A DNA stretch of 64,000 nt from Candidatus Omnitrophota bacterium. GTDB lineage: Bacteria; Omnitrophota; Omnitrophia; Omnitrophales; JACROU01. The stretch covers positions 194,926-258,925 of the forward strand of contig JAJDCD010000025.1 in NCBI GenBank assembly GCA_029261035.1, given 5' to 3'. Shown here in pieces: positions 807 through 33,835 of this stretch (position 1 is the stretch's first letter; each line of letters opens with the position of its first letter). Under the pieces are notes generated by a model. That model saw only the letters and a program-made list of their open reading frames with translations, did no database searches and was not told the origin of the DNA. A program made the translations under genes and the position numbers.

Positions 807-809
807 ATC

Positions 810-1388: not shown

Positions 1389-1400
1389 AAACTACCTCCC

Positions 1401-2432
1401 TTAAAATGTCTGTTTTAACAAGCTTTGCATTTCATCAGACATATATTCCACAACTGAAATAATATTTCCGTAATCCATTCGTTTTGGACCTAAAACACCC
1501 AAAAAACCAACCGACTGATCTTTAAGCTTATAACTTGATGTAATGAGAGAACAATCTAAAATAGAATTCAACTGAGTCTCATGACCAATCTGAACTTTCA
1601 AACCTTGTTCTGTTGTAATGTCTCTATCAAATAATTGCAGCAATGAAATTTTATCCTCAAAAAAATCGATGATTGTTCTCGTTTTATTCAAATCATCAAA
1701 TTCCGGATTACTTAAAACATTGGCTGAACCTTCTAATGAAAATTTAAGCTCCTGCAACACAACCATACTTTCTTGAACAATTCTACAAGCCACATCCGAT
1801 AATCGATATAAAGAATCTTTCCTAGATCCCAATTGACTCAATAGTTCTATCTCTAAATTAGAAAATAAGACTCCCTTCAATTCTTGATTTATAAAATTAC
1901 AAATAGTTTTTAATTCTTCTGCTTCTAGAGATTCTTCTATTTCAAGAAACCCTTGCCATACCATACCACTAGCAGAAACCCAAACCACCAGCATACGCAC
2001 ATCATCTATTGGAACCAAATTAACCGACTTAAAATACTGCGACTCTAGTTTAGGATAAAATACCAAACTCGCTTGATTCGTTAAACTAGACAAGATTTTA
2101 GAAGAATTCTGAATAACATCATCAATACTCTGAGCCTTCACACGAAACGAATCCATGACTTGTCCCGCCATATCTTGTGAGACCCGCCCTCTTCTCATTA
2201 AATGATCTACAAAGTAACGGTAGCCTAAATCCGTTGGCAACCTTCCTGCAGACGTATGAGGATGTGTAATATACCCTTTATCTTCTAGAACACCCAGTTC
2301 GTTCCTAATGGTCGCAGGAGAAACTCCCAAACTAGAACTTTGAGCAATCATTTGAGAACTGACTGGAATCACAGAATGAATGTACTCTGTCACAACCAAA
2401 GATAAAATGTTCTTTTGTCTATCTGTTAGCAT
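1401..2432 (-). CDS. hrcA: Heat-inducible transcription repressor HrcA
   Basis: The ORF-track start at 2456 adds eight residues. The conserved HrcA N-terminus MLTDRQKNILSLVVTEYI starts at the ATG at 2430-2432 and is preceded by a GGAG ribosome-binding site. A CIRCE operator lies 28 nt upstream. Confidence 0.9.
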   Translation of the reverse strand: MLTDRQKNILSLVVTEYIHSVIPVSSQMIAQSSSLGVSPATIRNELGVLEDKGYITHPHTSAGRLPTDLGYRYFVDHLMRRGRVSQDMAGQVMDSFRVKAQSIDDVIQNSSKILSSLTNQASLVFYPKLESQYFKSVNLVPIDDVRMLVVWVSASGMVWQGFLEIEESLEAEELKTICNFINQELKGVLFSNLEIELLSQLGSRKDSLYRLSDVACRIVQESMVVLQELKFSLEGSANVLSNPEFDDLNKTRTIIDFFEDKISLLQLFDRDITTEQGLKVQIGHETQLNSILDCSLITSSYKLKDQSVGFLGVLGPKRMDYGNIISVVEYMSDEMQSLLKQTF

Positions 2433-2459
2433 CCACAATCTCCAAAAAAGGGGCATATT

Positions 2460-2486
2460 CTAGCACTCTTTAACTTTGAGTGCTAA
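2460..2486. promoter_or_regulatory. CIRCE operator (HrcA binding site) upstream of hrcA-grpE-dnaJ
   Basis: The sequence cTAGCACTC-tttaacttt-GAGTGCTAA is a 9-bp inverted repeat with a 9-bp spacer. It matches the CIRCE consensus TTAGCACTC-N9-GAGTGCTAA at 17 of 18 positions and lies 28 nt upstream of the hrcA start codon. Confidence 0.85.
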
Positions 2487-2561
2487 TAAAAAGTATTTAG
2501 AAATTAGCTTTTTCTATGGGAAATAGATAGATTAACACCCTAACCTCAGACAGGCTAAGGG

Positions 2562-3980
2562 CTACACAACAGAAGGGAATATATTCTGGAAGTCTGCTTT
2601 TTTTCTTCTAATTTGCTCTAATTGCTGTGTATCCACAAATACTTTCTCGCTCGAAAATGGAAGTTCAATTTCTATTCCAGAAAAATCTTTAAATGAGTAC
2701 GCCCTTAAAACCTTACCTATCAAACGTAATATAGTATCAACATAATAGTTTACATCCTCAGGGTTTTGAGTTCCCACAACTTGAGGAAGTACGTCTGGCA
2801 CAAGACCCTCTTCTAAAGCTGTCTTAAAAGAAAAATAACCTACTTGATCTAAAGCTTCTATAGATTGATCTGTTTTTTCCTCCGGAAGATTATAAACAAT
2901 CTCAGGCTTCACCTTTCCCAAGGTATTCTCAATACGCTCATCCGAAAACATTAAATTTCCGGCACGTCGAGACAATTGTTTTGCCAAAAATCCAGGAAAA
3001 GTTACTTCTTCTAATTCATACTTCGTAGCCCAGTTTTCAAAATTTTCATAAAGCTTTAATTCTTGAGGAAATTTAATCTTCTGCAAATTCCCATCAGGTC
3101 CCTTAAAATCAAAAGGAATCACACGACTTATTTGATATTGATTTCCCTGCTGCACCAACACAAATAAAAACTCAGTTTCATATTCTGACGGAATTAGAAA
3201 CTCATGCTCACTGTACTCTTCTTTAGGTTTAAATTCTTCTTTTAACTTCACATAAACCAAAGCCTGATTTTGTTTAAAAGCAATAGAACGTATATCAACA
3301 ATTTCAGGACCCTCACTTTTTTTAAACTGAGACTCAAGTAAATAAGAATAAAAAAATGGGGAAATCATATTTAAATTTGTTCCAGAAATAAAATATTTAT
3401 CCAAAAGTTCAACAACCTGCAACTGATTCATATCTTTAAATAAGTGCTGAACAGGTCTATTCCATATAACAGCTCGATTAATCTTAAGATCATGAGAAAC
3501 ACGTTCTCTGTATTCACTTCTAGGAATATCCCAAAAACGAACTCTCTTAACATCATCCACATAGCCCAAGAGAACAAGTTCTATTCCCGTCACTTCTGTA
3601 TCAATGGCTTTAAGTAAATAAAAATCAAGATGAGAATCGGTACTCAACATCACTCTGGAAGTTGAAAAAAGAACATCCTCCACCTTTTCCATCGCTTCAG
3701 GAGAAAATTGCAATAAATTTTCTATGTTTTTCACTTTTCCTGTAGCTAAAACATGTTCGAAGTCACTATGAAACAATTGATTCAAAGGAAGAAAAACTCC
3801 TACAGTCTTTCCCTTAATAATCACCTCAACATCTTTAATATCATATTCTTTTAGGCAAATTTCTTTTATTGATTTTTTTACTTTTTCTTCAGGGTAAGTA
3901 GGTCCATCACAAGCAGAAAAAATAAGAGGTAGTAAAACAAGAAAACACGTTGTATATAAAAAAGTTCGGATATAAACCAT
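2562..3980 (-). CDS. Hypothetical lipoprotein (about 472 aa mature) with no recognisable catalytic motifs
   Basis: The long ORF is 2562..4052. The likely start is MVYIRTFLYTTCFLVLLPLIFSAC (ATG at 3978-3980), which gives a signal peptide with an FSAC lipobox. It is co-directional with, and immediately downstream of, the FtsH-like gene. Confidence 0.55.
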   Translation of the reverse strand: MVYIRTFLYTTCFLVLLPLIFSACDGPTYPEEKVKKSIKEICLKEYDIKDVEVIIKGKTVGVFLPLNQLFHSDFEHVLATGKVKNIENLLQFSPEAMEKVEDVLFSTSRVMLSTDSHLDFYLLKAIDTEVTGIELVLLGYVDDVKRVRFWDIPRSEYRERVSHDLKINRAVIWNRPVQHLFKDMNQLQVVELLDKYFISGTNLNMISPFFYSYLLESQFKKSEGPEIVDIRSIAFKQNQALVYVKLKEEFKPKEEYSEHEFLIPSEYETEFLFVLVQQGNQYQISRVIPFDFKGPDGNLQKIKFPQELKLYENFENWATKYELEEVTFPGFLAKQLSRRAGNLMFSDERIENTLGKVKPEIVYNLPEEKTDQSIEALDQVGYFSFKTALEEGLVPDVLPQVVGTQNPEDVNYYVDTILRLIGKVLRAYSFKDFSGIEIELPFSSEKVFVDTQQLEQIRRKKADFQNIFPSVV

Positions 3981-4065
3981 AAGTGCCTTAATTTCATTTA
4001 AAACAAAAAAGCCGTTTCTCCCTATAGATAGAGAAAAACGGCTTTTAAACAATGATTAAAAAAAT

Positions 4066-5739
4066 CTAATTGTCTGAAGCATCTTCTCCAGAAAATGAAT
4101 CTTTCTTCTCTTTACCCGCAGCAAATTCTCTCGGATTTGATTTGCCATATTCATTGAAAATTGCTTCAATTTCATCAAAGTCTAATTCTTGACGACTCAA
4201 AAGCTCTTTAGCGAATCGTTCAAAAAGGTCATTTTCTTTCTTCAATAACTCTTCAACCTCTTTGATACATTCTTGAATAATTCTATTTGACGCTTCATTC
4301 AACTTCAGTTTAAAATCATTCGACAATTGAGCTTCAGGAATTGAGGTGAAATCTCCATACAAACCATCCCCACCCATTCCAAGTCGCCACACCATATTAT
4401 GGGCAATCGCAGTTGCTTGTTTAAAATCACTAGATACCCCTGTCGTTGTCGTTTGAAATTTTAATTTTTCAGCAACATACCCACCCAGAGCCACTTTAAT
4501 ATTAGCAAGTAAAGTATGACTGTCATGACTGAAAAGTTCTTCCCTAGGAGTATGATGAACTACACCTAATGAAGATTTTCTGGGAATAATGGATGCTTTA
4601 AAAACATCGTCCGTAGGGTGAAGTAAATAAGTGGTTATCAAATGACCTGTTTCATGATAAGCCGTCATTGTCTTCTCTCTATCCGTCATCTTAATCTTTT
4701 GTTTAACACCTAATTCAACACGTTCAATTGCTTCGGAAATATCTTTAGCAGAAACAACATCTTTATGGTTTCTTGTTGCAATCAAAGCAGATTCCTTAAC
4801 AAGCATTTCGATGTCAGCAGGGCTTTTTCCCACAGCTTTACGAGCCAAGCGAGAAACATCAATGGACGCATCATGTTTCACTTTACCTAAATAATAACGA
4901 AACAATTTTTCACGTCCGTCTAAACTCGGCTTTGTGATATAAACCTTACGATCAAACCTTCCAGGTCTCAATAACGCTTCGTCCATAGAATCTTCAGGAG
5001 CATTCGTAGCTCCAATCACAATAACATCTTCCAATTTAGAACCAAGACCATCCATTTCTACCAGTAATTGGTTCTGTGTATTATTAGATTCTTGTCCACC
5101 GAATTGATTAAAAGTTCTTTTATGTCCCATTGCATCTAACTCGTCAATAAATACAATGCAACCACCAAAACCATAAGCAAGAGTACGCGCTCTCTTAAAT
5201 AGCTGACGTATTCGCGAAGAACCCACACCCACGAAAACTTCGTTAAATTCACTTGCTGCCATAGAAAGAAAAGGAAGGCCCGCTTCTGTAGCAATTGCTT
5301 TGGCTAAATAGGTTTTTCCACACCCAGGAGGTCCTAACATCAAAATACCTCTTAAGATTTTTCCCCCAATTTTTTTAAGGCGTGCATGATCCTTAATTAA
5401 TTGAACCACTTCCCATGCTTCTTCTTTAGCTTCATCAATTCCAACAACATCAGAAAAACGCACGCTCACATCTTTCCCTTTAATTTCTTTTTTATCTGTC
5501 TTTGTCATTCCTCCACGGAGAACGACTTGATACATAAATACGAAAACAGCAGCATGGACCATACCCAAAAGTAACGATAGTGGCATTTGTGCTAATGTAA
5601 TGTTTCTATAAAAACTCTCCAGAGAATACATACCCCAAATAGATAGGCCAATCAGAACCAAAATTCCTGCAGAAATTAAAATTTTAACTTTATGATTCAT
5701 CCAATACATTTTTGCTCTTCTTAAGTATCTTTTTTCCAT
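4066..5739 (-). CDS. FtsH-family ATP-dependent zinc metalloprotease paralog (AAA+ ATPase plus M41 peptidase) with a minimal periplasmic loop
   Basis: There are two N-terminal transmembrane helices separated by only about 20 residues. The protein has Walker A GPPGCGKT, Walker B IVFIDELDA, the second region of homology, and a zinc-binding HETGH (HExxH) motif. The start is preceded by AAGGAGA. At 557 aa it is shorter than canonical FtsH. Confidence 0.8.
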   Translation of the reverse strand: MEKRYLRRAKMYWMNHKVKILISAGILVLIGLSIWGMYSLESFYRNITLAQMPLSLLLGMVHAAVFVFMYQVVLRGGMTKTDKKEIKGKDVSVRFSDVVGIDEAKEEAWEVVQLIKDHARLKKIGGKILRGILMLGPPGCGKTYLAKAIATEAGLPFLSMAASEFNEVFVGVGSSRIRQLFKRARTLAYGFGGCIVFIDELDAMGHKRTFNQFGGQESNNTQNQLLVEMDGLGSKLEDVIVIGATNAPEDSMDEALLRPGRFDRKVYITKPSLDGREKLFRYYLGKVKHDASIDVSRLARKAVGKSPADIEMLVKESALIATRNHKDVVSAKDISEAIERVELGVKQKIKMTDREKTMTAYHETGHLITTYLLHPTDDVFKASIIPRKSSLGVVHHTPREELFSHDSHTLLANIKVALGGYVAEKLKFQTTTTGVSSDFKQATAIAHNMVWRLGMGGDGLYGDFTSIPEAQLSNDFKLKLNEASNRIIQECIKEVEELLKKENDLFERFAKELLSRQELDFDEIEAIFNEYGKSNPREFAAGKEKKDSFSGEDASDN

Positions 5740-5882
5740 ACAACTATCTCCTTGTCGAGGATACGACTTATCTCTCTAAAACCCTGTTTAGATCGCTAAT
5801 CTTATAACCTTCTTACGTAAAATTATACGATCTGGATTTCAATTTATCGGCATATTATCTCTTAATCTAAATACAAAAAATA

Positions 5883-6221
5883 CTACCACTCGTCATAGTA
5901 CTCATTCCACTCATCCCACTCAGAGCTTCCATCTTGAGATAAGGGACTATCTGTTTCAGAAAAAAAACTGGAAGTATCCCCTACTTGATACTTAACCATG
6001 ACAGGTTTCTCTTCTTCTTTTTTCACATCTGCATTCTTTTGATTTCCGCGGGCTTTTTCTATCCTTTTATGATAGGTCTGAGAATAAGCCTCCTCAGGAA
6101 GGATAAACCCCAATAGAAGGGCAAAAGAAATTATCAAAGTACTTAAGTAATTGATCTGAAATTTAATATTTAACATATTAATGCTCTTATCAGAATTTGT
6201 ATTAAAATAGTTATATTGCAA
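5883..6221 (-). CDS. Small secreted or membrane protein with an acidic, Trp-rich C-terminus (start uncertain; internal ATG at 6176)
   Basis: It has a hydrophobic segment LSTLIISFALLLGFIL and a C-terminus SSEWDEWNEYYDEW. It lies upstream of and co-directional with the FtsH-like gene. No homology is recognised. Confidence 0.4.
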   Translation of the reverse strand: MQYNYFNTNSDKSINMLNIKFQINYLSTLIISFALLLGFILPEEAYSQTYHKRIEKARGNQKNADVKKEEEKPVMVKYQVGDTSSFFSETDSPLSQDGSSEWDEWNEYYDEW

Positions 6222-6406: not shown

Positions 6407-9256
6407 TCAGCTCTTAGAAGTCACTTTCATACAAGATTTCTTAAGGTACTGAGCTGTATAAGACTCTGAAACTTTAGACAAGTTTTTTTGGGGCCCTGAA
6501 TACAGAACATCTCCACCTTCGTCACCACCCTCTGGACCAAGATCTATAATAAAATCTGCATTTCTTATAATTTCCATATTATGCTCAATAACTAAAAGAG
6601 AATTCCCATTTTGAAGTAATTCATCAAAAGCTTTAATGAGAAACTGAATATCATGGTAATGAAGTCCTGTCGTTGGCTCATCAAATATGTAAAGAACTTC
6701 AGACTTGCAACAATCACTCATCTCTAATGCAAGCTTCAACCGTTGAGCTTCACCTGCTGACAAAGTCGTTGCTGATTGCCCTAATCTTAAATAACCCAAC
6801 CCAACACTTTTCAGCACTCTCAATTTACGAACTAGTTTGTGTTGTTCTTTAAAAAAATCTAAAGCCTCTTCAACTGTTAAACTCAAAACCTCATGAATAT
6901 TCTTGCTTCTGTACTTAATCTCTAAAATGTGCGTTTGATATCGAGTTCCATTACACTGATCGCATTCCACATAGACATCTGCCATAAAGTGCATTTCAAC
7001 ACATATCTTTCCTTCTCCATGACAGCCTTCACAACGCCCACCTGCAACATTAAAAGAAAAAGCTCCAGGCCCCAAATGACGTCTCTGAGCATCTGGCGTT
7101 TTAGAAAATATTTGTCGTATATGATCAAATGCTTTCAAGTAAGTCACTGGATTTGAGCGAGGAGTTCGCCCAATGGGAGACTGGTCAATCAAAATAATAT
7201 CATTCACAAAATCAAAACCTGTCACTTCTTTACAAGCTCCAACATCTGCAACAGACTTCCCTTTAGCTCTAAGATAGTTTTTGTATAGAACATCATAAAC
7301 CAAAGTGCTTTTTCCTGACCCAGAAACACCCGACACAACACAAAATTGTTTAAGAGGAATCTCGACATCAATGTTTTTTAAATTATGTTCTGAAGCACCT
7401 TTAATATGAATACACCCAGCTTCCTCACCTGGCTTAGAAACATACCCTCTCTCAATCTTCTCTTTTCCATTAAGGTACTTGGCCGTCAAAGAATTAGGAT
7501 CTTTTAATAGTTTTTTCATCTCTCCACTAAATATAACTTCTCCTCCATACGCCCCAGCAAAAGGCCCCATATCGATCACTTTATCTGCCATTCGCATCAT
7601 CGAAGCATCATGTTCAACAACAACAACTGTATTTCCCAAACCTCTCAATTCTTGAAGTAGATTAATCAACAATTCATTATCTCGTTCATGCAACCCAATA
7701 CTAGGTTCGTCTAAAACATAAAGGGTATCCACAAGACTAGAACCTAAAGATTTTGCCAAGTTGATTCTTTGACTTTCTCCACCGGATAAATTTCGAGAAA
7801 GACGCCCTAAAGTTAAATACCCTAACCCAACATCATTTAAGAACTTAATCCTCTTGTTTAACTCCAATAAAATAGGCCCTGTAATTTTCTCTTCATGTTC
7901 CGTCAACTTCAATTTGTGAAAAAACTTTTTCAGATGAACCAAAGGGATCTGACATAATTCATCTACATTTTTTTTATTAATTGTCACATTTAAAACACGT
8001 TCCTTTAACCTACTTCCCTTACATTCAGGGCAAACAAAATATCCTCTATACTTACTTAAAAAAATTCGAACATGCATTTTGTATGTTTTCTTTTTTAAGT
8101 ATTCAAAAAATCCTTCCACACTATAAAAGTCATTTTCCTTATCCCCTTCGTGAAGAATAATATCTTTTTGTTTCTGACTTAATTCTTCAAATGGTTTGTC
8201 CCAAGAAATTTTTTTCTTTTTACAGTATTTTTCTAACTGTTCCGCTTCCCAAGCGGCACTCGGTTTGGTCCAAGGCTCAATAACACCTTCACCTAAAGAC
8301 TTTTTAGGGTTCGGTATAACCAAATTCCAATCAATGTCAATAATCCGGCCAAACCCCTGACAGGTTTCACAAGCTCCTAGCGGGCTATTAAAAGAAAACA
8401 TATTGGGGACGGGTTTTTGAAATTCTTGTGTATAAGGCGAACAATTAAATAACCTAGAATAGGTTTTACACTCCCACCCTAAAAAGTCTTTTTGTTCTGA
8501 TGGAAATTTTTCAGAAATATTTGGAGAGACATAAACTGAAAGAAATTCTTTACCAAAGCGATAAGCTGATTCCAAGGACTCAACAACTCGGACTTTTTTT
8601 GAATCTTCCAATAAAATACGATCTGCAATAATGGATAATTTATCTATACATTCATCTTCTAAAATCGATTTTTCCAAAGGAACGATTTGACTCTTCCATA
8701 ATACACGTGTAAAACCTTGTTGCGACATTTCCGACATAAGTTCATCTGGATATGTTCGAACTTTCTCTGAAAGAGGGACATCGAATACGATTATGGCCCA
8801 ATGGCCTTTGTATTGCTTAAACAAATCCTCCACAACATACTGAGGTTCCTCTTCCTGAACTAGTTGATGCGTTTCTGGGCAATAAGTCTTTCCAATACGA
8901 GAGAAAAGGATTCTTAAATAATCATTCACTTCTGTTTGAGTTCCAACGGTAGAACGAGCATTCGAAATTCGATTTTCTGCTTGAATAGCAATGGCAGGTA
9001 AAATTCCAGAAACAGAATCTAAATCAGGTTTTTCCATACGCTCAAGAAATTGGCGCGCATACGAGGACAAAGACTCAACATACCTTCTTTGTCCTTCCGC
9101 ATATAAAGTATCAAAGGCAAGCGAAGACTTTCCAGAACCACTCACTCCTGTAATAACCACTAATTGATTATGCGGAATGGATATATCCAGATTTTTTAAA
9201 TTATGAGTTTTCACTCCCTTAAGAGAAATCTCACCTTGAGACATGCGTATGACCAC
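6407..9256 (-). CDS. uvrA: Excinuclease ABC subunit A
   Basis: The 949-aa protein has two ABC ATPase modules (GVSGSGKSSLAFDTLYAEGQRRY and VSGVSGSGKSTLV), LSGGE signature motifs, and Cys-rich zinc modules (CETCQGFG; CEGCHGEGK). Confidence 0.95.
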   Translation of the reverse strand: MVIRMSQGEISLKGVKTHNLKNLDISIPHNQLVVITGVSGSGKSSLAFDTLYAEGQRRYVESLSSYARQFLERMEKPDLDSVSGILPAIAIQAENRISNARSTVGTQTEVNDYLRILFSRIGKTYCPETHQLVQEEEPQYVVEDLFKQYKGHWAIIVFDVPLSEKVRTYPDELMSEMSQQGFTRVLWKSQIVPLEKSILEDECIDKLSIIADRILLEDSKKVRVVESLESAYRFGKEFLSVYVSPNISEKFPSEQKDFLGWECKTYSRLFNCSPYTQEFQKPVPNMFSFNSPLGACETCQGFGRIIDIDWNLVIPNPKKSLGEGVIEPWTKPSAAWEAEQLEKYCKKKKISWDKPFEELSQKQKDIILHEGDKENDFYSVEGFFEYLKKKTYKMHVRIFLSKYRGYFVCPECKGSRLKERVLNVTINKKNVDELCQIPLVHLKKFFHKLKLTEHEEKITGPILLELNKRIKFLNDVGLGYLTLGRLSRNLSGGESQRINLAKSLGSSLVDTLYVLDEPSIGLHERDNELLINLLQELRGLGNTVVVVEHDASMMRMADKVIDMGPFAGAYGGEVIFSGEMKKLLKDPNSLTAKYLNGKEKIERGYVSKPGEEAGCIHIKGASEHNLKNIDVEIPLKQFCVVSGVSGSGKSTLVYDVLYKNYLRAKGKSVADVGACKEVTGFDFVNDIILIDQSPIGRTPRSNPVTYLKAFDHIRQIFSKTPDAQRRHLGPGAFSFNVAGGRCEGCHGEGKICVEMHFMADVYVECDQCNGTRYQTHILEIKYRSKNIHEVLSLTVEEALDFFKEQHKLVRKLRVLKSVGLGYLRLGQSATTLSAGEAQRLKLALEMSDCCKSEVLYIFDEPTTGLHYHDIQFLIKAFDELLQNGNSLLVIEHNMEIIRNADFIIDLGPEGGDEGGDVLYSGPQKNLSKVSESYTAQYLKKSCMKVTSKS

Positions 9257-9389: not shown

Positions 9390-9788
9390 TTAAGCCGTCG
9401 AACGGTTCATATTACCTTTGATTTCCTTCATCAAATCAGCAACTCCCACTACAGACTGAGAAGATGGAGTTACTCGAACAGAGGTCTTACTACGAGCCAA
9501 ACGCTCTAACCTAAAGTGAACCATTCGTTGATCTATAGGGGCAAAGATATCAGGGTACTTTTCATTAAACGCGGTAATACGCCCTTCCTTCTTTTCCGTC
9601 TCAAACAACGTCCAATCAGGAGTATTCAAAACTGCGTCCATCACACGTAAATAAGTGTAATCTAGAGCTCTGTCAAAAATAAGTGTCTCATCATGAACAG
9701 GCAAAATAGCTTTTTTAGCAGAAGAACATCCAGAAATAGCTACTGCTGTAAAAAGAACAAGAAATGCTATTGAAAGTATTCTACTCAT
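9390..9788 (-). CDS. Small lipoprotein (132 aa), function unknown
   Basis: It has a signal peptide MSRILSIAFLVLFTAVAISGCSS with an ISGC lipobox. It sits immediately downstream of the giant surface-protein gene, separated by 34 nt. Confidence 0.55.
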   Translation of the reverse strand: MSRILSIAFLVLFTAVAISGCSSAKKAILPVHDETLIFDRALDYTYLRVMDAVLNTPDWTLFETEKKEGRITAFNEKYPDIFAPIDQRMVHFRLERLARSKTSVRVTPSSQSVVGVADLMKEIKGNMNRSTA

Positions 9789-9822
9789 ATGTCATCTACC
9801 TCTTCCTCTAATAAATACGGTG

Positions 9823-12800
9823 TTAGAACTCCCCTGTCAAACGAGCGTAAAACCCATTAAATTCATAACCACTATCTGGAGTAATTCCATCATCAAAATT
9901 TGAAAAATCATAACCAATACCTAATCGCATATAATCCATTAATTTACGATCAACCTCAAATAAGAATCCATGCTTACGGTCGTCTGCAGCGCTATCTTGA
10001 TACAACACTCGATACTCAGCAGAAATATCCCACTTACGAGTTACATGAAAATTAACTCTAGAAGCCCAAAGAAAACGATTCACAATAGAATCTTGACCCG
10101 TGTTTAAAGCAAATTTAGAACTTCTCAAAGCAACTTTTTGAACCAATTGGAAATATTTATTTACCTCATAAGCACCTTCAAACGCTACTGTATGAGATTT
10201 TTGCTGAAATGGAATTGCGTTCTGGAAAGCTCTATCAGGACTCTTATCATCTAAATAAGTGTATCGTGAGATAAAATTTAAACGATCAAATTTAATAGGA
10301 CGATAAGCGATTCCAACGTTCAATTCGGTAAAATATGATTCTGTTTGTTGTAGTGATTTACTACGTGTTCTAGAGGTATTCAAACGGCCTTTAAAAGTGA
10401 GGTCATCATTAAATTTAAATGTTGTAGAGTTTTGAAAGGTTATTTGATAACGTTCATTGGATGTAGTATCTTTTCTAAGCTCTGCTTTTGTTGCTGTTTT
10501 TAAACGTTTTCCATCATCATAGGCAACCGTTACAGAACCTGTATTACGTTTATCCGGAATACTCAACTCGTCAATAACACTGCGTTCATAAGTTGCATTA
10601 ACAGCCCATTTATTTGCTAGCTTAATTTCATAACCAAAAACATCTTGTTGATTAATTCCTGTAGAAGCGTAATCCGAATAGCGTTTTTCAGTATAGATAC
10701 GACTACGATCATCTAAAATATGGCTTGTTCCCATAGATGTCAAAAGACTTCTTTGACCATTATGACGATCTACAACAGAAAAGTTATTATAAATTCTAGT
10801 ATTCTCAGACAACTCTCGTTCAACACCAATCAAAACAGAATCCCCAATATTACCAATCATTTGCTCAAACCGAGCCGTGGTTTTATTATCAGGAAGTTTA
10901 ATTTCCGCTCCAACCCCAAACTGATTATTCGAATCTTCTCCACCCAAAGCCCACTGAGCCCGAACATAAGGTTTAAACCAATCATAAACTTGATAGGCTA
11001 CCTTAAGTGCAACTGCATTTTCAAAACGTTCGTTATCCAAAATATCTTCAACAGCTCTAAATGGCGTAGCTACATCAATATCTTGCTTACGATATTCCGC
11101 AATAATATCCCAAGGACCTCTTGCGTAAACAGCCTGCAACATGGTTGTTGTACGTTTCTCAGGATCAAAGAAAATTTGAGGGACAACAGATATTCTAGGA
11201 GCCACAATTTCAGCCTGATCATGTCTGAAACGCGCATGCAAATGATCTGTAATTTTATAACGCACATTCACACCATACTTCAATGTCCCTTGCTGACTCG
11301 CCAAATCTGAAACAGCAAAACCTGGTGTTAATTTCTGGAAATAAGCAGATAATTCTGTTCGTTTTCCAATACGTGTTTGCCCCTTAATTGAATAAGCTTC
11401 ACTTCTCGTTGGAGCACCTGTTTGATTATCTGCAAAGCTCAAACCGCCGTCGAAAGAAACTGCAGCACCGCCAGGGGTATTACTTGTCTCTGCAACTTCA
11501 GCAACAATCTTAGTATTTTCTCCAATACGCAAGGTAGCATCAATTCCTCTAACAATATAATCATCTGCTGTAGACAATGCTGTCTGCCTCACATAAGAAC
11601 CACCAAATTTTAAATTTTCCCCTACATTAGTCCAAGCACGAAGCCCTCTTGAATTAAAATCAAAAATTGCATGTGTTTCATATTCATAATCCGCAATTAA
11701 AATAACTCTATTTCCATTCAAAATATTATTAGAAATAATCGATTGCGAAGATGCCACCGAAAGAAGAGGTTTTGTTAAAATAATTCGGCCTGCCTGGTAA
11801 TCAATTTCATAATCTTGACCTTCAACAAGTTCTGTCTCTGTAATATTAATTCCCTGCACTTTATCCCGAACAACAACCTTTAATTTTTCACTCCCCTCAA
11901 TCACTAAACGATGTCTCAAATAATAAACAGACCCCCCGGTACCCACAAACTCATTATGATCTCCTGCTTGACGAGCACTCGCAGACATCATTGTCACACC
12001 CGCTTTAGCATCACCATATTTCGTCGTTGAAAGGGTTTCGTAATGAGCTTTAACGCCCGACAAAGTCCTGTTATATTGAACCAAATCAGTTTCATCAAAA
12101 TCAGTTTCAAAACTACCGTATTTAAAGAAAGATCTGTCCGCTTCAATCAGTAAATAGAATCGTTCCTGAGAATCCTGTGCACTGTAATCGATCACAGAAC
12201 CATCTCCATAAACAGGATAATAAGAATCTGGGTCTAAATTGGTAAACAGTCGAGAAAGGTTATCGCCCTCAGCACTATCATCCGAATCCATATGAGCTGT
12301 TACCAAGAAACGACCTTTAATCTTCCCTTTTAAATAAAAAGCCACTCTTCCATCTTGGTAGAAAGAGTCTTGAAATTCATCGGAGTCTCCTAAAGTTTCC
12401 GTACTTCCTTCAACTACGTTAAATCCCAATTCTCCTTCAGCAAGACCCACCATAAAAAAGTATCTATCTTTAACATCCACTTCTTTAGAGTAACTTACAG
12501 TAGAACCTTCACGATCGACACTTGCTACTTGAACATTATTAACACCATAAGGCATATACATAAGTTCATTAAAGACCCCTTCGGAGTCCACATTAACCTT
12601 TCGGTCATTAATAACAACATCCCTCTCATCTCCTACAGTTCCTCGAACTTGAACAGGAGCACCATATTTATCAAGGGGAATACTTTGTTTTCCATCTTTC
12701 TGTACGTTAAAGAAGCCCGTGTCACTAAAAGGTTGATCAAAACGCTGACCCTCACCGGTTAATTTATCAATAACTCTAAAGTATTTAAGTACAGTCCAGT

Positions 12801-14484
12801 CAGAAAAATTATCTCGGTCTGAAACAATCATGCGATAAGCATAATCCCCTGGTTCAAGAATTTTTTCATTGTCTCCAATACCCGACCATGGAACTTCTCG
12901 CGGAGGAGAACCTTCTCCATAACCTGTCCAAACCAACTCACCATATTCATTACGAACTTCAATTTTCCAATCAGAAATAAAGCTACCATAGTTTGTATCA
13001 AAATGAAAAACAGGATTTATTTCAAACATCCCCTGTCCTCTCTTTAACTCAAGAGGATTCATGCCAACATTAAGAATAGGATTTGCTTTATCCTGATACT
13101 GAGCCGCATAAACGTTCAACTCATCTTGATATTGTTCAGGAACTTGTCCTTTAGGGAGTTTTACAGCAAAACTAACCTTACTAAGCATCCCAGGAGTCGT
13201 TTTAAAAAGAAAGGTCTCTTCAGTAATAAACTTTGTTCCCTCAGGTAAAGAATGTCCATCTATTTTGATAAGATGCCTATTCGGCTCTAAACCTGGAATG
13301 TTATATTTACCATGATTATCTGTGTAAACAACAAGGCCATCTTCTGTTGCAAGACGAACATTAGGAATACCTTCCTCCCCTTCATCTTGCATCCCATTTT
13401 CATTTTTATCATTAAAAACCTTACCCAACAGAGTTCCTGAATCAAACAAACCATCCGGAATAATACGAATAGGAATTCTTGTAGCAGAACTTAAAATAAT
13501 TGACGTTAACGGGTTTCTTGCGGATATAACAATATCATACACCTCACCAATAGTAACTCCCGAGGTAACGAGAATTTGCATCGAGATAGGTCTAATTTCA
13601 CCTACAGCTAATGCCCCCTGAATTGGAAACGTGTGATTCGGTCCTGATTTTTCTGGAATTACAAGACGGCCATTCAAAAGCGCGGTATTTCTAACAATGT
13701 TTAAACCAAAAGGAATTGTTAAATTAATTTCAGAAGCTGGGATCGCTGCCGCTGTTGTATTTTGAATATTAAAAGAAAGTGTAATTAACTTTCCTGGCCA
13801 AGCTTCAACGTTATTGATACCGGTACTAATACTAATAGGAAAAAGTTTTGGAGCTCCTGTAAAGTTTTGAGTAAAAGCACCTCTAACATTATCAAAAACA
13901 ACGTCTCCAGCACCTAAACCTCCTGCCGCCAAGACTGTTGTTAGTGTAGCACGTGCAAAATTGGTTCCTGCAGGTGCAATCCCCTGTGCTGTAAAAGTAC
14001 CAAAAGCAGCTCCGGTGCTTGCTGTAGTAATTTGAGCGGATTGATAAGCCCCTATTTGAACGCCTCCTGCATTAAAAAACTCAAGACGAACAATGGCAAA
14101 ACCATCCCCCGCACCACCGGCTAAGTTCGGTGTTCTAGCATCCACCGAACAGCTAATATGATCTCCTGCTGTAACCCCTGTAATATTCTGAAAAATACCT
14201 GCCGTGTTTCCACCAAAAGCATTTACTTGAACAGAAGCGATTCCTTGAGTTAAGAATGGGGCTCCTATCGGACCTGGAGCTACAGTCACACGGTTGGCAA
14301 TCGTACCACCACCCGTACTAAATGAAGTCCAATCATTAGCGGTCGTCGCACCCCCAGCTCCAGCAGTTTCAAAGCCGGCATTGGTGACAACATTCGCCCA
14401 TGCACTTGGTGCTGCAAAAGCAAATAGCCCAAAAACGACAAGCCCTAACAAAATGTGATTTAACTTAAAGTTTTTATTCATCAT
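9823..14484 (-). CDS. Giant (1553 aa) putative outer-membrane or surface protein: signal peptide, Gly/Ala/Thr-rich N-terminal region, Cna-B / carboxypeptidase-regulatory-like fold, C-terminal predicted beta-barrel
   Basis: It has a signal peptide MMNKNFKLNHILLGLVVFGLFAFAAPSAWA. The first roughly 250 aa are rich in G/A/T with GGA-type repeats. The segment LGKVFNDKNENGMQDEGEEGIPNVRLATEDGLVVYTDNHGKYNI resembles SdrD-B / Cna-B folds. The last roughly 600 aa show the alternating hydrophobic pattern of beta-strands and end in ...GFYARLTGEF, the terminal Phe signature of outer-membrane proteins. Confidence 0.65.
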   Translation of the reverse strand: MMNKNFKLNHILLGLVVFGLFAFAAPSAWANVVTNAGFETAGAGGATTANDWTSFSTGGGTIANRVTVAPGPIGAPFLTQGIASVQVNAFGGNTAGIFQNITGVTAGDHISCSVDARTPNLAGGAGDGFAIVRLEFFNAGGVQIGAYQSAQITTASTGAAFGTFTAQGIAPAGTNFARATLTTVLAAGGLGAGDVVFDNVRGAFTQNFTGAPKLFPISISTGINNVEAWPGKLITLSFNIQNTTAAAIPASEINLTIPFGLNIVRNTALLNGRLVIPEKSGPNHTFPIQGALAVGEIRPISMQILVTSGVTIGEVYDIVISARNPLTSIILSSATRIPIRIIPDGLFDSGTLLGKVFNDKNENGMQDEGEEGIPNVRLATEDGLVVYTDNHGKYNIPGLEPNRHLIKIDGHSLPEGTKFITEETFLFKTTPGMLSKVSFAVKLPKGQVPEQYQDELNVYAAQYQDKANPILNVGMNPLELKRGQGMFEINPVFHFDTNYGSFISDWKIEVRNEYGELVWTGYGEGSPPREVPWSGIGDNEKILEPGDYAYRMIVSDRDNFSDWTVLKYFRVIDKLTGEGQRFDQPFSDTGFFNVQKDGKQSIPLDKYGAPVQVRGTVGDERDVVINDRKVNVDSEGVFNELMYMPYGVNNVQVASVDREGSTVSYSKEVDVKDRYFFMVGLAEGELGFNVVEGSTETLGDSDEFQDSFYQDGRVAFYLKGKIKGRFLVTAHMDSDDSAEGDNLSRLFTNLDPDSYYPVYGDGSVIDYSAQDSQERFYLLIEADRSFFKYGSFETDFDETDLVQYNRTLSGVKAHYETLSTTKYGDAKAGVTMMSASARQAGDHNEFVGTGGSVYYLRHRLVIEGSEKLKVVVRDKVQGINITETELVEGQDYEIDYQAGRIILTKPLLSVASSQSIISNNILNGNRVILIADYEYETHAIFDFNSRGLRAWTNVGENLKFGGSYVRQTALSTADDYIVRGIDATLRIGENTKIVAEVAETSNTPGGAAVSFDGGLSFADNQTGAPTRSEAYSIKGQTRIGKRTELSAYFQKLTPGFAVSDLASQQGTLKYGVNVRYKITDHLHARFRHDQAEIVAPRISVVPQIFFDPEKRTTTMLQAVYARGPWDIIAEYRKQDIDVATPFRAVEDILDNERFENAVALKVAYQVYDWFKPYVRAQWALGGEDSNNQFGVGAEIKLPDNKTTARFEQMIGNIGDSVLIGVERELSENTRIYNNFSVVDRHNGQRSLLTSMGTSHILDDRSRIYTEKRYSDYASTGINQQDVFGYEIKLANKWAVNATYERSVIDELSIPDKRNTGSVTVAYDDGKRLKTATKAELRKDTTSNERYQITFQNSTTFKFNDDLTFKGRLNTSRTRSKSLQQTESYFTELNVGIAYRPIKFDRLNFISRYTYLDDKSPDRAFQNAIPFQQKSHTVAFEGAYEVNKYFQLVQKVALRSSKFALNTGQDSIVNRFLWASRVNFHVTRKWDISAEYRVLYQDSAADDRKHGFLFEVDRKLMDYMRLGIGYDFSNFDDGITPDSGYEFNGFYARLTGEF

Positions 14485-29048: not shown

Positions 29049-29519
29049 TTTCTCCTCTTAAGTTCTATGAACTTTCAATCATGATACTGCTAAACAACTT
29101 ATAACTATTCCAAAGACAAAAAAACCAGAAACTATGCCTAGGGTTTAGAACCCTTTAGAAAGGATTAGCTTCTGGTAGTCCAAGTTTCTCTTAGGTATCA
29201 AAATTTCATTCGATACAATTATCCTTCGTTATCCAAAGGTACTGGAGCAAAAAATGCCCCCTAAAGAAAAGAGCCAATTATAGAGGAAAAAACCCAAGAA
29301 ATCAAACATCCATACATCCTAGCTCAATTCAATACTAATTCCCTAAGGGAGATCTTCGTCTTAAGTTCAAAATAGAGGCTCTTCCACAAAGCTTTCTCTC
29401 GTAGAGAAAGGAGCTGTAATTCAGGCTAAATACTATTAAATTTTAGCCCTACCGCTTGTATCTCATGCTATATTATGCGCTTACTTGCTTTGCTGTAGCC
29501 ATTCGTAGAAAGGTACCTA

Positions 29520-30434
29520 ATGATACAAAAGCTTAAGAAACACGTCGATTGGAAAAAATTAGAGAAAAGTTTAGGGGTTAAGCTTAAGAATCACAAATTT
29601 GCTCTTGCAGCATTAACCCACCCATCTTACCGAAACGAAATGAGACTGCACAATTTACTCTGTTTCGAAAGAATGGAATTCTTAGGAGATTCTATTTTAA
29701 ACTTTACCATCAGTGAAATCTTATATGAAAAATATAAAGATGGTGATGAAGGAATGCTCTCTAAACTAAAATCCATCCTCGTATCCGGGAAAATTCTAGC
29801 AAAAATAGCTAAGAAATTAAAACTAAGACAATTCATGATTTTAGGAAGAAGTGAACGTCATCATCCTGATTTGGAAAGAGCAAAAATTATGGCGGATACT
29901 TTCGAAGCTATTCTAGCTGCTATTTATTTTGATCGAGGGCTTCCAACAGCACAACGTTTCATAAAAAAACAATTTAAATTTTATTTCAGCCCTAAACGCC
30001 TCCACACTATTGGCGTCAGCCCAAAAACAATCCTGCAAGAATTATCACAAAAACATTTAAAAATTTTACCACAATACCAATCAGAGTTAAAAAAAGGTCT
30101 TTTTCATTGTACTGTGAGCTTAAAAAAAATCGGAAAAACAAAAGGTTCAGGGAGAACAAAAAAAGATGGTGAAGAAGCGGCCGCAAAACTGCTTATTGAA
30201 AAATTTGAATCCACAAAAGTTCCAACTACAATCACTTCAAGAATTCAAAGAAAAACAGAACCCAAGTCAAATTCCACAACAACGGATGCCCCTAAAAAGA
30301 AAATAGTTTTAAAAAAATCGAAAAAGAAAGCATCTCCTAAAAAGCCTACTTTAAAGACAAGCGTCAAAAAGAAAACTACAACTTCCAAAAAACCAGTTTC
30401 TAAATCAAAGAGTCCTGCTAAAAAGAAGAAATAA
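29520..30434 (+). CDS. rnc: Ribonuclease III with an unusual ~70-aa lysine-rich, histone-H1-like C-terminal extension
   Basis: It has the RNase III signature ERMEFLGDSILNF, a dsRBD (ILQELSQKH...GSGRTKKDGEEAAAKLLIEKF) and a tail TTTDAPKKKIVLKKSKKKASPKKPTLKTSVKKKTTTSKKPVSKSKSPAKKKK. Confidence 0.9.
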   Translation: MIQKLKKHVDWKKLEKSLGVKLKNHKFALAALTHPSYRNEMRLHNLLCFERMEFLGDSILNFTISEILYEKYKDGDEGMLSKLKSILVSGKILAKIAKKLKLRQFMILGRSERHHPDLERAKIMADTFEAILAAIYFDRGLPTAQRFIKKQFKFYFSPKRLHTIGVSPKTILQELSQKHLKILPQYQSELKKGLFHCTVSLKKIGKTKGSGRTKKDGEEAAAKLLIEKFESTKVPTTITSRIQRKTEPKSNSTTTDAPKKKIVLKKSKKKASPKKPTLKTSVKKKTTTSKKPVSKSKSPAKKKK

Positions 30435-30439
30435 AGTTT

Positions 30440-33124
30440 CTACCCAAAAATAGAGCTGATAATTTTAGAAGCTTGGTCCACGGTATCCTGCATAGAGCTA
30501 TCTTCAGAACCTCCACTAAAAATTGAGCCTATTTTACTAATGATGGCACGTCCAATAGCCCTTTTATCAACTGAAACCTTAGGGTCTGAAATCGTTCCAC
30601 TCAGCCTAAAAGGAACAACTACAGCATTTGTTTCGGAGGGTGTTTGTTGCAACTCAAATTCTGAGATTTCGCCAAGTTGAGCCTTAGAATGAAAATCTAT
30701 ATTCTCATCAAAATCTACGATACCTTCACTGGTTACGTATAATTTATTTGAAAGCAAATAAGTGTCTGCAAATTTCACCTTTCGATCTGCAATCTGAATA
30801 CGTCCTTTGAGATTTCGAAAGCTCGTAAATTTAACTAAAGGATCACTTAAATTAAAACTCACCAATTCCGGCAAAGTTGAAAAAGCCCCTAATAAATTTA
30901 CCCCATAAATTTCCCCGTTACTAATATCAAAAGCACCTTGGCCAATAATCGTTTCTTCCAACTGATCCCGACCCCCTATTTCCCCTTGAACATTTAAGCT
31001 AGCGTTAAGAAGCCCCGACATAATTTTTTTCTCAAATTTCTGAAATAGGATTTCCATCGGCACGTTAACACTATCCAACTTCAAAACATAACGAGGAGGA
31101 AGAGAATCGAAAGACGCCTTTCCTACTACTTCCACAGAACCCTGGCCTGCTCTTATTTTTAAAGTTTGAATATCCGCCTTTCCATTATCAAACTGAATTA
31201 CTCCTTTCAAATCCGTCAACGAAATACCTTGAAACAAAACTTCTTTAAGGCTGATATTAATATTGCCTGTCGCTTTTCTTAAAGGCTCGGGCAAACTGTT
31301 TGTGACCCGAGAGGAATCCGGAGAAGCTAAAAGGGAGTCAAAGGAAATTAGAGAAGAAGCCTCTTCTGCATAAGCGGTTCTTTCCCAAAAAGAAGATCTT
31401 GCTGTTTTAATAGCTTGAGTTTGCGCTTGAGCGATCGTAGGATTTTGAATTTCTTTAACAGTGTCTATAAGTGAGATAAAATCATCAACCACAAATTTAT
31501 CCGATTGAATATCCATTTCAAATTGAGGAGCCAAAGGATCATTTAAAGCTAAATTCATTTTAAGATCCGTGTCATTCAATTTTAGCAATACTTCCTGAAA
31601 GGCTATTCGATCCGAATTAAAATCAAAAGAACCGGACAAATGCCGCACCAACACCTTATCTCCAGAAGACAAGGTTACGGAATCCAAAATAGTATGCGTC
31701 CCATATTTAGATTGTTTAAAATCTGTCAACTTCCCTTTTAAAGTAGCCAATAGCTTCGCTTCACCCTCCAAAGTTAAGCCCTTCATAGGAACAAAAACTC
31801 CATCAAAATCACTAAGAGGAAATTTATTAGATATAAAGTTTACGTCTCCCTCAAGAGTCTCTAGACTCAACCTTGCACTCGTACCTTTCACATTCATACT
31901 TCCAAAACGGATATTAAATTCCACATCTTCTAACTCTTCCGAAGCAATTTTAGACTGTAATGAAGCTGAAAAACTTTGCCCTGACTTCTTCTTTAAAACT
32001 TGAGGCACTTCCAGTAGAGCTTCTTTTAAATCGACATCTAAACTCACCGCTAGATTATCCGCAGGACCTTTCACAATAACCGAAGCAGCGGCATTCCCTT
32101 CAGCAGTCCAATTTGAGAGATAACCTATCTCAGCCAATAAATTCGAAGGTAATTGTGGGATGAATTCGTTTAAATTAAGGTCTCGGATACGTAATGTAAA
32201 ATCAATTTGAGGTTGTTCACTCATGCTCACACTGCCAAAACTAACCCCCTCAAGACCTAGGCCAGTAATATTCATGTTATCCATTTGAAAAGTTTGATTA
32301 GCTTGAGTCCAACTGTAATCCGTCTCAAACTTAAGAGGAATAGAAAAAGGCAGCGACTCAACAACCTCCCCTTCCACTACCGTCTTAATTGTATTTAATT
32401 TACCTTCACCATAATCCAAATCTTGAAAAGTTAATATAGAGGTCCCATTCACATCCTGAGATGTAGAATTAAACGAAACAACCCCTTGTGAACCCAACAT
32501 CAAAGATCGGATTGGCAACGAAGTTCTAATCAACCCCGACTTCACTAGTACTGCCCAATCTAACTGAGAAACATCATAACGCATACTCATTTCATTAAAT
32601 TCAAACTTACCTTCATCAAGAGATAAAAAAGCATCTCCTTCCACTTCAAAAGTACTATCTGTTTCAAATAAATGTCCTTCAAAAGAAAATCTCGAAGGGG
32701 TTTTAAAATCAACCGACTTCACCCTTCCTTCCACATCCGTTAATTGAATAAAAGCTTTCTTTCCCTTTTCCACCCATTCATAGTAAACATCAACACCTTT
32801 CATCTGAACAGAACTCGCTTCAATATTTTTAAAAATTAATGGGAATAATTTCAAAAATACTTTTGCTTTTTTTGCTTTTAATACAGGAATTTCCTTTGAG
32901 GATTTAGGAGAGTAAACAACAACATTAGAAACCTCAATAAATGCAGATGGAATAAACCCTACACCAATTTCACCAATTTCAAATTGGTCCCCTGCACGAG
33001 CTTTTATTTGAGATGTAAGATAGTCTTGAATATCAGAATTTGAAACAAATAAAGGAAGAGCAAAAATAACAGCAGCAACAATTAGAACAATAACAATAAG
33101 AAGAATGCTAATAACTTTTTTCAT
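30440..33124 (-). CDS. AsmA-family-like large envelope protein (894 aa; N-terminal transmembrane anchor)
   Basis: It has a single N-terminal transmembrane helix ISILLIVIVLIVAAVIFALPLF followed by a long, repetitive, beta-rich periplasmic region typical of AsmA/TamB-like proteins. The assignment rests on architecture only. Confidence 0.5.
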   Translation of the reverse strand: MKKVISILLIVIVLIVAAVIFALPLFVSNSDIQDYLTSQIKARAGDQFEIGEIGVGFIPSAFIEVSNVVVYSPKSSKEIPVLKAKKAKVFLKLFPLIFKNIEASSVQMKGVDVYYEWVEKGKKAFIQLTDVEGRVKSVDFKTPSRFSFEGHLFETDSTFEVEGDAFLSLDEGKFEFNEMSMRYDVSQLDWAVLVKSGLIRTSLPIRSLMLGSQGVVSFNSTSQDVNGTSILTFQDLDYGEGKLNTIKTVVEGEVVESLPFSIPLKFETDYSWTQANQTFQMDNMNITGLGLEGVSFGSVSMSEQPQIDFTLRIRDLNLNEFIPQLPSNLLAEIGYLSNWTAEGNAAASVIVKGPADNLAVSLDVDLKEALLEVPQVLKKKSGQSFSASLQSKIASEELEDVEFNIRFGSMNVKGTSARLSLETLEGDVNFISNKFPLSDFDGVFVPMKGLTLEGEAKLLATLKGKLTDFKQSKYGTHTILDSVTLSSGDKVLVRHLSGSFDFNSDRIAFQEVLLKLNDTDLKMNLALNDPLAPQFEMDIQSDKFVVDDFISLIDTVKEIQNPTIAQAQTQAIKTARSSFWERTAYAEEASSLISFDSLLASPDSSRVTNSLPEPLRKATGNINISLKEVLFQGISLTDLKGVIQFDNGKADIQTLKIRAGQGSVEVVGKASFDSLPPRYVLKLDSVNVPMEILFQKFEKKIMSGLLNASLNVQGEIGGRDQLEETIIGQGAFDISNGEIYGVNLLGAFSTLPELVSFNLSDPLVKFTSFRNLKGRIQIADRKVKFADTYLLSNKLYVTSEGIVDFDENIDFHSKAQLGEISEFELQQTPSETNAVVVPFRLSGTISDPKVSVDKRAIGRAIISKIGSIFSGGSEDSSMQDTVDQASKIISSIFG

Positions 33125-33157
33125 CGATGACCCCAGAATACTTCTAGTAAGAATAGA

Positions 33158-33346
33158 TTAATATCCAGAAGGACTATAAGCTCCATAGCTTGAAAACGGG
33201 TCTCTAGACCCAGAAGAACTCGCATCCGATTGCGCTGCCGCAAGCCCCCCAGAACCATAGGAGTAGTCCTCAAAGAACTCTGCACAACCAGAAACAATAA
33301 GAGATGAAAATAGAATCATAATTACAAACATGAGTTTAAAATTCAT
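33158..33346 (-). CDS. Small Ser/Gly/Tyr-rich lipoprotein (62 aa)
   Basis: It has a signal peptide MNFKLMFVIMILFSSLIVSGC with a VSGC lipobox. A ribosome-binding site AGAAGG lies 6 nt upstream of the ATG. The gene is directly upstream of the AsmA-like gene. Confidence 0.45.
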   Translation of the reverse strand: MNFKLMFVIMILFSSLIVSGCAEFFEDYSYGSGGLAAAQSDASSSGSRDPFSSYGAYSPSGY

Positions 33347-33367
33347 AATAACCTTCTAAAATAAAAA

Positions 33368-33398
33368 AGGTGACATAAAACCTATGTCACCTTTTTTG
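33368..33398 (-). terminator. Rho-independent (bidirectional) terminator after rpsI
   Basis: It has a perfect 10-bp stem aggtgacata / tatgtcacct with a 5-nt loop, flanked by an A-run on one side and TTTTTT on the other. On the minus strand the stem is followed by TTTTTTATTTT. Confidence 0.6.
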
Positions 33399-33427
33399 AG
33401 CTTAAACTTAAAACTAAATAATAAATA

Positions 33428-33835
33428 TTAACGTTTTACGAATTGGAACTTACGACGAGCACCCTTTTGTCCAAACTTTTTACGTTCTTTTTCTCTAGGG
33501 TCTCGTGTTAAAAATCCGAATTTTCTTAAAGATGCCTTTAAATCTGGATTCCACTCTACAAGAGCACGGGAAATCCCCAACTGAAGAGCTCCTGCTTGCC
33601 CACTAAGCCCTCCGCCATTTAAAGTTGCTTTAACTTTAAACTGATTGATTGTTTTAGACTCTTCAAGGGGTTGACGAATTAACATGATTTGAATTGGAGT
33701 GAAATTATTTGCTTCTAACGGCTTTCCATCTACCTCAAATCCAGATTCTCCTTCTTCTAACCAAACGCGAGCAACAGCTGATTTTCTTCTTCCTGTTGCG
33801 TAATATTTCTTTGTTTCTTTTGTAGCAGCTGACAT
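33428..33835 (-). CDS. rpsI: 30S ribosomal protein S9
   Basis: The conserved S9 sequence ends GGGLSGQAGALQLGISRALVEW ... and has a basic C-terminus ...KFQFVKR. Confidence 0.95.
   Translation of the reverse strand: MSAATKETKKYYATGRRKSAVARVWLEEGESGFEVDGKPLEANNFTPIQIMLIRQPLEESKTINQFKVKATLNGGGLSGQAGALQLGISRALVEWNPDLKASLRKFGFLTRDPREKERKKFGQKGARRKFQFVKR

Follow-up and report, generated by a model that had tools for sequence, protein, structure and literature searches.

[quoted passage not shown] The DEAD-box RNA chaperones Mss116 and CYT-19 have basic tails that tether the core to structured RNA. Lysine-rich tails are also found on bacterial DNA-binding proteins, such as chlamydial Hc1 and Hc2, mycobacterial HupB, and actinobacterial topoisomerase I, and S/TPKK-type motifs occur in the tails of histone H1. 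Among ribonucleases, RNase R has a disordered K-rich C-terminal domain that is reported to strengthen binding to RNA, to be needed for ribosome recruitment (PMC3949413), and to bind polyphosphate (PMC12345225). The enzyme described here, which is encoded in a stretch of 64,000 nucleotides from a Candidatus Omnitrophota genome (referred to as the window), has the same domains as class 1 RNase III, shares all of its catalytic acidic residues, and aligns over its full length with the solved structures. However, while the solved enzymes mostly end 2 to 5 residues after the dsRBD, the window enzyme adds about 70 residues that are polycationic and predicted to be disordered.

Architecture of the window enzyme

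The rnc open reading frame starts with ATG and ends with a TAA stop codon at positions 30432 to 30434, and its 304-amino-acid product is identical to P0001, an NCBI entry in the public protein collection that lies on a 388-kb contig. The features of the locus are as follows, with the supporting evidence in parentheses.

29520..30434, forward strand: rnc gene, encoding a 304-amino-acid RNase III with a C-terminal lysine-rich extension (open reading frame list, TIGR02191, identity with P0001)
29592..29975, forward strand: RNase III catalytic domain, amino acids 25 to 152 (PF14622, PF00636, alignment, PDB, AlphaFold2)
30021..30212, forward strand: dsRBD, amino acids 168 to about 231, with an α-β-β-β-α order of elements (Pfam dsrm, AlphaFold2 model)
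30213..30224, forward strand: conserved junction KVPT, amino acids 232 to 235 (tail-less relatives end right after KVPT)
30225..30431, forward strand: polycationic low-complexity tail, amino acids 236 to 304 (composition, AlphaFold2, frame openness, codon use, alignment with the locus L001)
30435..30439, no strand: 5-bp spacer to the stop codon of the convergent gene, with no hairpin (compared with hairpins in L003 and L006)
30440..33124, reverse strand: convergent AsmA-family gene, 894 amino acids (Pfam AsmA on the L001 and L003 orthologues)

The core of this protein is that of a canonical RNase III, as the sequence-only reading had proposed from an ERMEFLGDS signature and a dsRBD. The NCBIfam equivalog model TIGR02191 ("ribonuclease III") matched with 189 bits, above its curated cutoff of 166.25 bits, with amino acids 14 to 228 spanning 218 of the 219 model positions. 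Pfam placed Ribonucleas_3_3 (PF14622) at amino acids 25 to 152 (E = 3e-33), Ribonuclease_3 (PF00636) at amino acids 50 to 140 (E = 3e-24), and a single C-terminal dsrm domain (PF00035) at amino acids 168 to 228 (E = 3.6e-7, above the cutoff). Within the catalytic domain, the FERMEFLGDS signature occupies amino acids 49 to 58, and E53, D57, E77, D126, and E129 are invariant columns in a 44-sequence RNase III alignment; we take these residues to be the equivalents of E. coli E41, D45, E65, D114, and E117. Solved bacterial RNase III structures align with amino acids 12 to 231 (1o0w, E = 1e-36), and an AlphaFold2 model built on the 44-sequence alignment is confident over amino acids 1 to 231 (pLDDT of about 90), with the dsRBD made up of helix 168-179, strands 185-191, 194-201, and 205-211, and helix 214-231. 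When homologues were compared by eye, no clear pattern linked weak dsRBD Pfam scores to the presence of a tail. The window protein is thus a full-length class 1 bacterial RNase III with intact catalytic residues, in which every testable defining feature is present. Because its core is that of an ordinary RNase III, the enzyme presumably processes pre-rRNA and other double-stranded RNA, as its family does.

Since the solved structures align only to amino acid 231, with most of the solved chains stopping 2 to 5 residues past the dsRBD, the residues beyond about this position are extra. In agreement with the earlier description of a lysine-rich extension of roughly 70 amino acids made up mostly of K, T, S, and P, 69 residues follow KVPT in frame. 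They comprise 24 lysines (35%), 12 threonines, 10 serines, 6 prolines (9%), only 3 alanines (4%), and 2 acidic residues, giving a net charge of about +23, and they include the stretch PKKKIVLKK...SPAKKKK, with one SPKK and one SPAKK. The tail is predicted to be disordered: its pLDDT in the AlphaFold2 model is about 46 to 63, with one short helix at amino acids 237 to 245 and no structure beyond. Its best 40-residue stretch contains 19 lysines, whereas none of the other 49 window open reading frames of at least 120 amino acids has more than 11, and among the approximately 50 window open reading frames and 11 genes of L001, such a K-rich stretch is found in rnc only. Neither a small histone-like basic open reading frame nor a widespread habit of K-rich tails was seen in the 64-kb window. 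The suggestion that such a tail is new for bacterial RNase III agrees with the searchable literature, largely outside the subscription journals, in which no description of one was found.

To place the tail among its relatives, residues beyond the position of amino acid 228 were counted in the 120 nearest RNase III homologues; all named homologues are from Candidatus Omnitrophota metagenome-assembled genomes. At least 15 residues lie beyond the dsRBD in 59 of the 120 proteins and at least 20 in 30 of them, and the net charge of this region is +4 or higher in 84. More than 60 residues or a charge above +13 is seen only in the window protein and in P0002, its nearest relative. From these counts, a basic appendage after the dsRBD is normal in Omnitrophota RNase III, with the window tail at the extreme of the trend. 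The other tails share the position after the last dsRBD helix and the positive charge; however, they are 10 to 41 residues long, carry +4 to +12, and are often R/K mixed, as opposed to 69 to 76 residues and about +24 for the window's. A motif, SSG[RK]KL, is present in 18 of the other tails and absent from the window tail, which has no detectable sequence relationship to them. As an observation in its own right, these 18 more distant homologues (P0014, P0016, P0020, P0024, P0025, P0028, P0034, and others) carry ...[KR][KR]xSSG[RK]KL[RV][KR]T[FS] just past the dsRBD, and the SSG[RK]KL peptide, within a tail of about 22 amino acids, looks like a short linear motif beyond mere basic composition.

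Reality and origin of the tail

The nearest relative of the window enzyme, P0002 (296 amino acids, 84% identity in the core), has a tail as well and is present in assemblies from JGI, Logan, and ENA. This tail of 60 residues with a net charge of +30 begins at the same junction (KVPTTISN... compared with KVPTTITS... in the window), and the tail DNAs of the window and of L001, the corresponding locus, align end to end. L001/L002, taken from independent assemblies (JGI and Logan), share with the window both this junction and the context of the stop codon, ...AAGAAATAAAG. The tail sequences themselves have diverged: that of the window is rich in K, T, S, and P, whereas that of P0002/L001 consists largely of K and V and has no S/TPKK motif. 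Tandem Repeats Finder resolved the L001 tail into tandem 15/63-nt repeats encoding KKKVV units and found no DNA repeats in the window tail. What is conserved between the two is therefore positive charge and length rather than motif. Retention of length and charge without sequence is the pattern expected if charge, and not a fold, is under selection, an argument that, with two tail-bearing sequences known, amounts to one comparison. Searches of genome and metagenome contigs returned only tail-less relatives (75 to 77% identity) and distant RNase III proteins, with no further tail-bearing relative.

As the window DNA is from a metagenome-assembled genome, as homopolymeric A-runs are prone to errors, and as nine close relatives stop exactly at the KVPT junction, the tail could be imagined to result from a sequencing or assembly error, that is, a frameshift or missed stop codon near position 30220 that joins downstream sequence, or a separate small basic gene, to RNase III, a possibility raised in the sequence-only reading. 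We consider such an artifact very improbable. The alignment continues through KVPT into the tail with the frame unchanged, an independent species has this architecture too, and the remaining five frames over the window tail are closed, carrying 1 to 9 stop codons each. There is also nothing to fuse: in the tail-less relatives, rnc is followed by a hairpin or a short spacer and then directly by the convergent gene, with no small basic open reading frame in between. The continuous frame, the L001 relative, the closed frames, and the missing partner together rule out an origin of the tail by frameshift or fusion.

Several properties of the DNA point to genuine coding sequence. In mononucleotide shuffles that keep base composition, the tail frame was open in only 0.7% of cases for the window (P = 0.007) and in 0.16% for L001 (P = 0.0016). 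The choice of Lys, Ser, Thr, and Pro codons in the window tail is like that of the other window genes and thus coherent with the genome. For the L001 tail, AAG makes up 19 of the 31 lysine codons, against 32% in neighboring genes (p = 8e-4) and 2 of 34 lysine codons in the rnc core, an enrichment inflated because one repeat unit is duplicated in tandem. A-runs reach at most 5 in the L001 tail, where 11.6 would be expected, and 7 in the window tail compared with an expected 10 (P = 0.05); this avoidance of long A-runs by the lysine codons is consistent with translated tails. Taken together, these comparisons indicate that the window tail is real and very probably translated. Two observations had been named earlier as speaking against it, a lack of the tail in close relatives and incoherent codon use. 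The former holds for nine relatives but not for the closest one, and the latter was not found.

A neighbor-joining tree of the core groups P0001 and P0002 in a clade that is sister to nine tail-less proteins, P0003 to P0011. These sister-clade proteins end in ...KKVPT(A) followed by the stop codon, and the outgroups are tail-less or short-tailed; a single gain of the tail in the common ancestor of the window genome and its closest relative is therefore the most parsimonious reading of the tree. In L003, one of the tail-less loci, the TAA stop codon aligns with the first codon of the window tail. The GC content is 37% in the window and 36% in L001 compared with about 50% in the tail-less relatives. 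The gene order argC, rnc, and convergent asmA-like gene is common to the window and L001, and the asmA-like neighbor is kept in L003. We read the DNA 3' of rnc in three tail-less relatives: L003 has a 56-bp spacer (positions 6712 to 6767) with a perfect hairpin resembling a bidirectional terminator, L006 also shows a terminator-like hairpin, and the spacer of L005 is short, C-rich, and free of hairpins. Of the tail-bearing genomes, the window has a stop-to-stop gap of 5 bp between rnc and the convergent gene (30432 to 30442) and L001 one of 11 bp (6889 to 6905), with no hairpin. As a side observation, the 3' ends of the rnc and asmA-like mRNAs in these genomes probably overlap, which would create a double-stranded RNA that RNase III itself could cut.

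In the scenario that we propose, the ancestral stop codon right after KVPT was lost and the C terminus was extended by about 70 disordered residues. Because tandem 15/63-nt repeats are still visible in L001, the tail most likely grew by expansion of A-rich, lysine-coding repeats. It would have taken the position of the terminator-like hairpin present in two of the three tail-less relatives, and its sequence would then have diverged freely while length and charge were retained.

Possible roles of the tail

In the sequence-only reading, the tail was likened to those of eukaryotic H1 and of the chlamydial proteins Hc1 and Hc2. With regard to charge and disorder this comparison stands, as the H1 C-terminal domain and Hc1/Hc2 are lysine-rich and disordered like the window tail, which also has occasional S/TPKK-type motifs. 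It does not extend to homology. Linker_histone (PF00538), Hc1 (PF07432), and HC2 (PF07382) gave no match in Pfam searches with the whole protein (E ≤ 1) or with both tails (E ≤ 10), and the single Pfam match to the tails at the latter threshold was noise (DUF5760, E = 0.37). An exhaustive phmmer search with the tail alone returned 0 matches at E ≤ 1e-3 among 1.84 billion representative proteins, in a setting in which the composition correction would hide purely compositional look-alikes. This null result rules out a conserved, mobile tail module. A tail-only word-index search of 5.8 billion proteins yielded 7 candidates, none of which scored; as low-complexity words are probably uninformative, this second null result says nothing on recurrence. 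The window protein also differs from H1 in having no winged-helix globular domain. Its tail, which an RNA enzyme carries, is poor in alanine (3 of 69 residues), in contrast to the C-terminal domains of H1, and its SPKK-type motifs are not conserved in the relative. On this evidence, the likeness to H1 and Hc1 appears to be one of composition only, and the window protein would fall outside the H1, Hc1/Hc2, and RNase R K-rich families.

[quoted passage not shown] However, RNase R belongs to the RNB exoribonuclease family whereas the core of the window enzyme is RNase III, and the two tails have no sequence homology. The function of the RNase R domain further depends on E740/K741, K749/K750, and tmRNA-SmpB, and nothing comparable can be identified in the window tail. 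The idea of an RNA-acting core tethered nonspecifically to large structured RNAs by an unstructured basic C-terminal tail is also illustrated by Mss116 and CYT-19, but they belong to an unrelated protein family, and the likeness is by analogy only.

A tail with a charge of about +23 next to the dsRBD should add salt-sensitive, nonspecific affinity for polyanions, whether RNA, DNA, or polyphosphate. A tether to RNA or ribosomes is at least as plausible as one to the nucleoid, and we favor RNA or ribosomes as the target because the enzyme's own substrates are RNA, because shorter basic tails recur in its relatives, and because of the RNase R precedent. The explanation that we prefer, to which we give about an even chance of being right as a whole, is that of a genuine and, as predicted from its residues, catalytically competent RNase III with a once-gained, disordered polycationic tail that acts as an electrostatic RNA tether. 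The tail would form a flexible tether beside the dsRBD and raise the nonspecific affinity for structured RNA, such as pre-rRNA, ribosomes, or long double-stranded RNA, and this higher affinity would increase the local concentration and dwell time of the enzyme. We infer both the binding to RNA or ribosomes and a fitness benefit. As the sister clade works without it, the tail is dispensable for core RNase III function.

Two other readings have to be weighed against an RNA tether. In one, proposed in the sequence-only reading, the tail would bind chromosomal DNA nonspecifically in the manner of H1 or Hc1, localize RNase III to the nucleoid, and couple cotranscriptional processing of rRNA and mRNA to the chromosome. 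The polycationic, disordered character of the tail with its one SPKK and one SPAKK fits this proposal, as do the known lysine-rich tails of Hc1/Hc2, HupB, and topoisomerase I, and proximity to the nucleoid would be sensible for an enzyme whose pre-rRNA processing is cotranscriptional. [quoted passage not shown]

The other reading, which we consider possible though clearly less probable than an RNA tether, is that the stop codon was lost and A-rich repeats grew by slippage in an AT-rich genome, leaving a neutral or near-neutral by-product that is tolerated and has no specific function. Lysine-rich low-complexity extensions can build up almost neutrally in AT-rich genomes, where they are no surprise in themselves, and the tail is confined to an AT-rich subclade. 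The tail of the relative visibly consists of tandem repeats, the two tails have diverged almost completely save for their lysine content, and the ribosomal protein S9 of the relative, but not that of the window, has an EVKA-repeat extension. A near-neutral origin is credible because the sister clade is tail-less, because S9 provides a second repeat-born extension, and because there are only two tail-bearing sequences. On the other hand, similar length, charge, junction, and stop codon have been kept across a core divergence of about 16%, and the frame is open in both lineages against a chance expectation of 0.2 to 0.7%. Long poly-A runs are avoided, AT pressure makes stop codons and does not remove them, the stretch is the only one of its kind among the genes compared, and basic tails recur across Omnitrophota RNase III.

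A far more speculative proposal, which we regard as a long shot, is that in this ultrasmall Omnitrophota lineage a de novo, repeat-born polylysine region of 70 residues, arising at the site of an intergenic terminator, relocates the only RNase III of the cell, either by docking it to the nucleoid or nascent rRNA or by drawing it into RNA-dependent condensates like the BR-bodies of RNase E. The enzyme could then possibly also cut the overlapping 3' ends of the rnc and asmA-like mRNAs, whose terminator would have disappeared with the birth of the tail.

A functional tail, whether an RNA tether or otherwise, would be a clean natural case in which low-complexity sequence born de novo gave a housekeeping enzyme of RNA processing a new module for targeting or affinity, and the tail-less, short-tailed, and long-tailed sister species would form a ready set for comparison. 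The principle established for RNase R, that bacterial ribonucleases are guided to ribosomes or other polyanions by lysine-rich disordered tails, would then also apply to RNase III. A neutral tail would show AT-biased genomes growing tolerated poly-Lys appendages and losing intergenic terminators. In either case, the knowledge of RNase III catalysis is unchanged.

Other features of the neighborhood

The divergent gap between argC and rnc is 470 bp long and contains blocks that are conserved with the relative (window positions 29049 to 29330, reverse strand; L001 positions 5631 to 5900). Read on the reverse strand, it provides a leader of about 230 nt for the arg operon (argC, argJ, argB, argD, and argF). 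This leader has a promoter-like TTGATT, 17 nt, TATAAT arrangement, a small hairpin and subsequent U-run at positions 29274 to 29256, and a long hairpin (CCAGAAGC...GUUUCUGG) with U7 after it, all of which precede the Shine-Dalgarno sequence of argC. The fold z-score of the leader is -2.5, and a search of it against Rfam gave a noise match only. It could represent an attenuator or a riboswitch-like leader of a kind not yet described.

On the other side of rnc, the S9 protein of L001 (positions 9866 to 10411, reverse strand) has 181 amino acids, with an N-terminal EVKA/EEVKA repeat extension ending in KKPAKKK, whereas the S9 protein of the window (positions 33428 to 33835) has 135 amino acids and no such extension. 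The S9 extension is the second case in the lineage of low-complexity sequence born from repeats on an RNA-associated protein. Between the asmA-like gene and rpsI lies a small conserved open reading frame (window positions 33125 to 33427, reverse strand; L001 positions 9658 to 9843), which encodes a lipoprotein-like signal sequence with a cysteine (...SGCAEF...) followed by a low-complexity tail rich in G, S, and Y; the window copy follows a clean terminator-like hairpin (GGTGACATAGGTTTTATGTCACC and then T6). In L003, the arg operon is replaced by an open reading frame of more than 2,442 amino acids directly upstream of rnc (positions 1 to 5836, reverse strand) that has no Pfam annotation. The window itself contains a 1,553-amino-acid open reading frame at positions 9823 to 14484 on the reverse strand, likewise without Pfam annotation.
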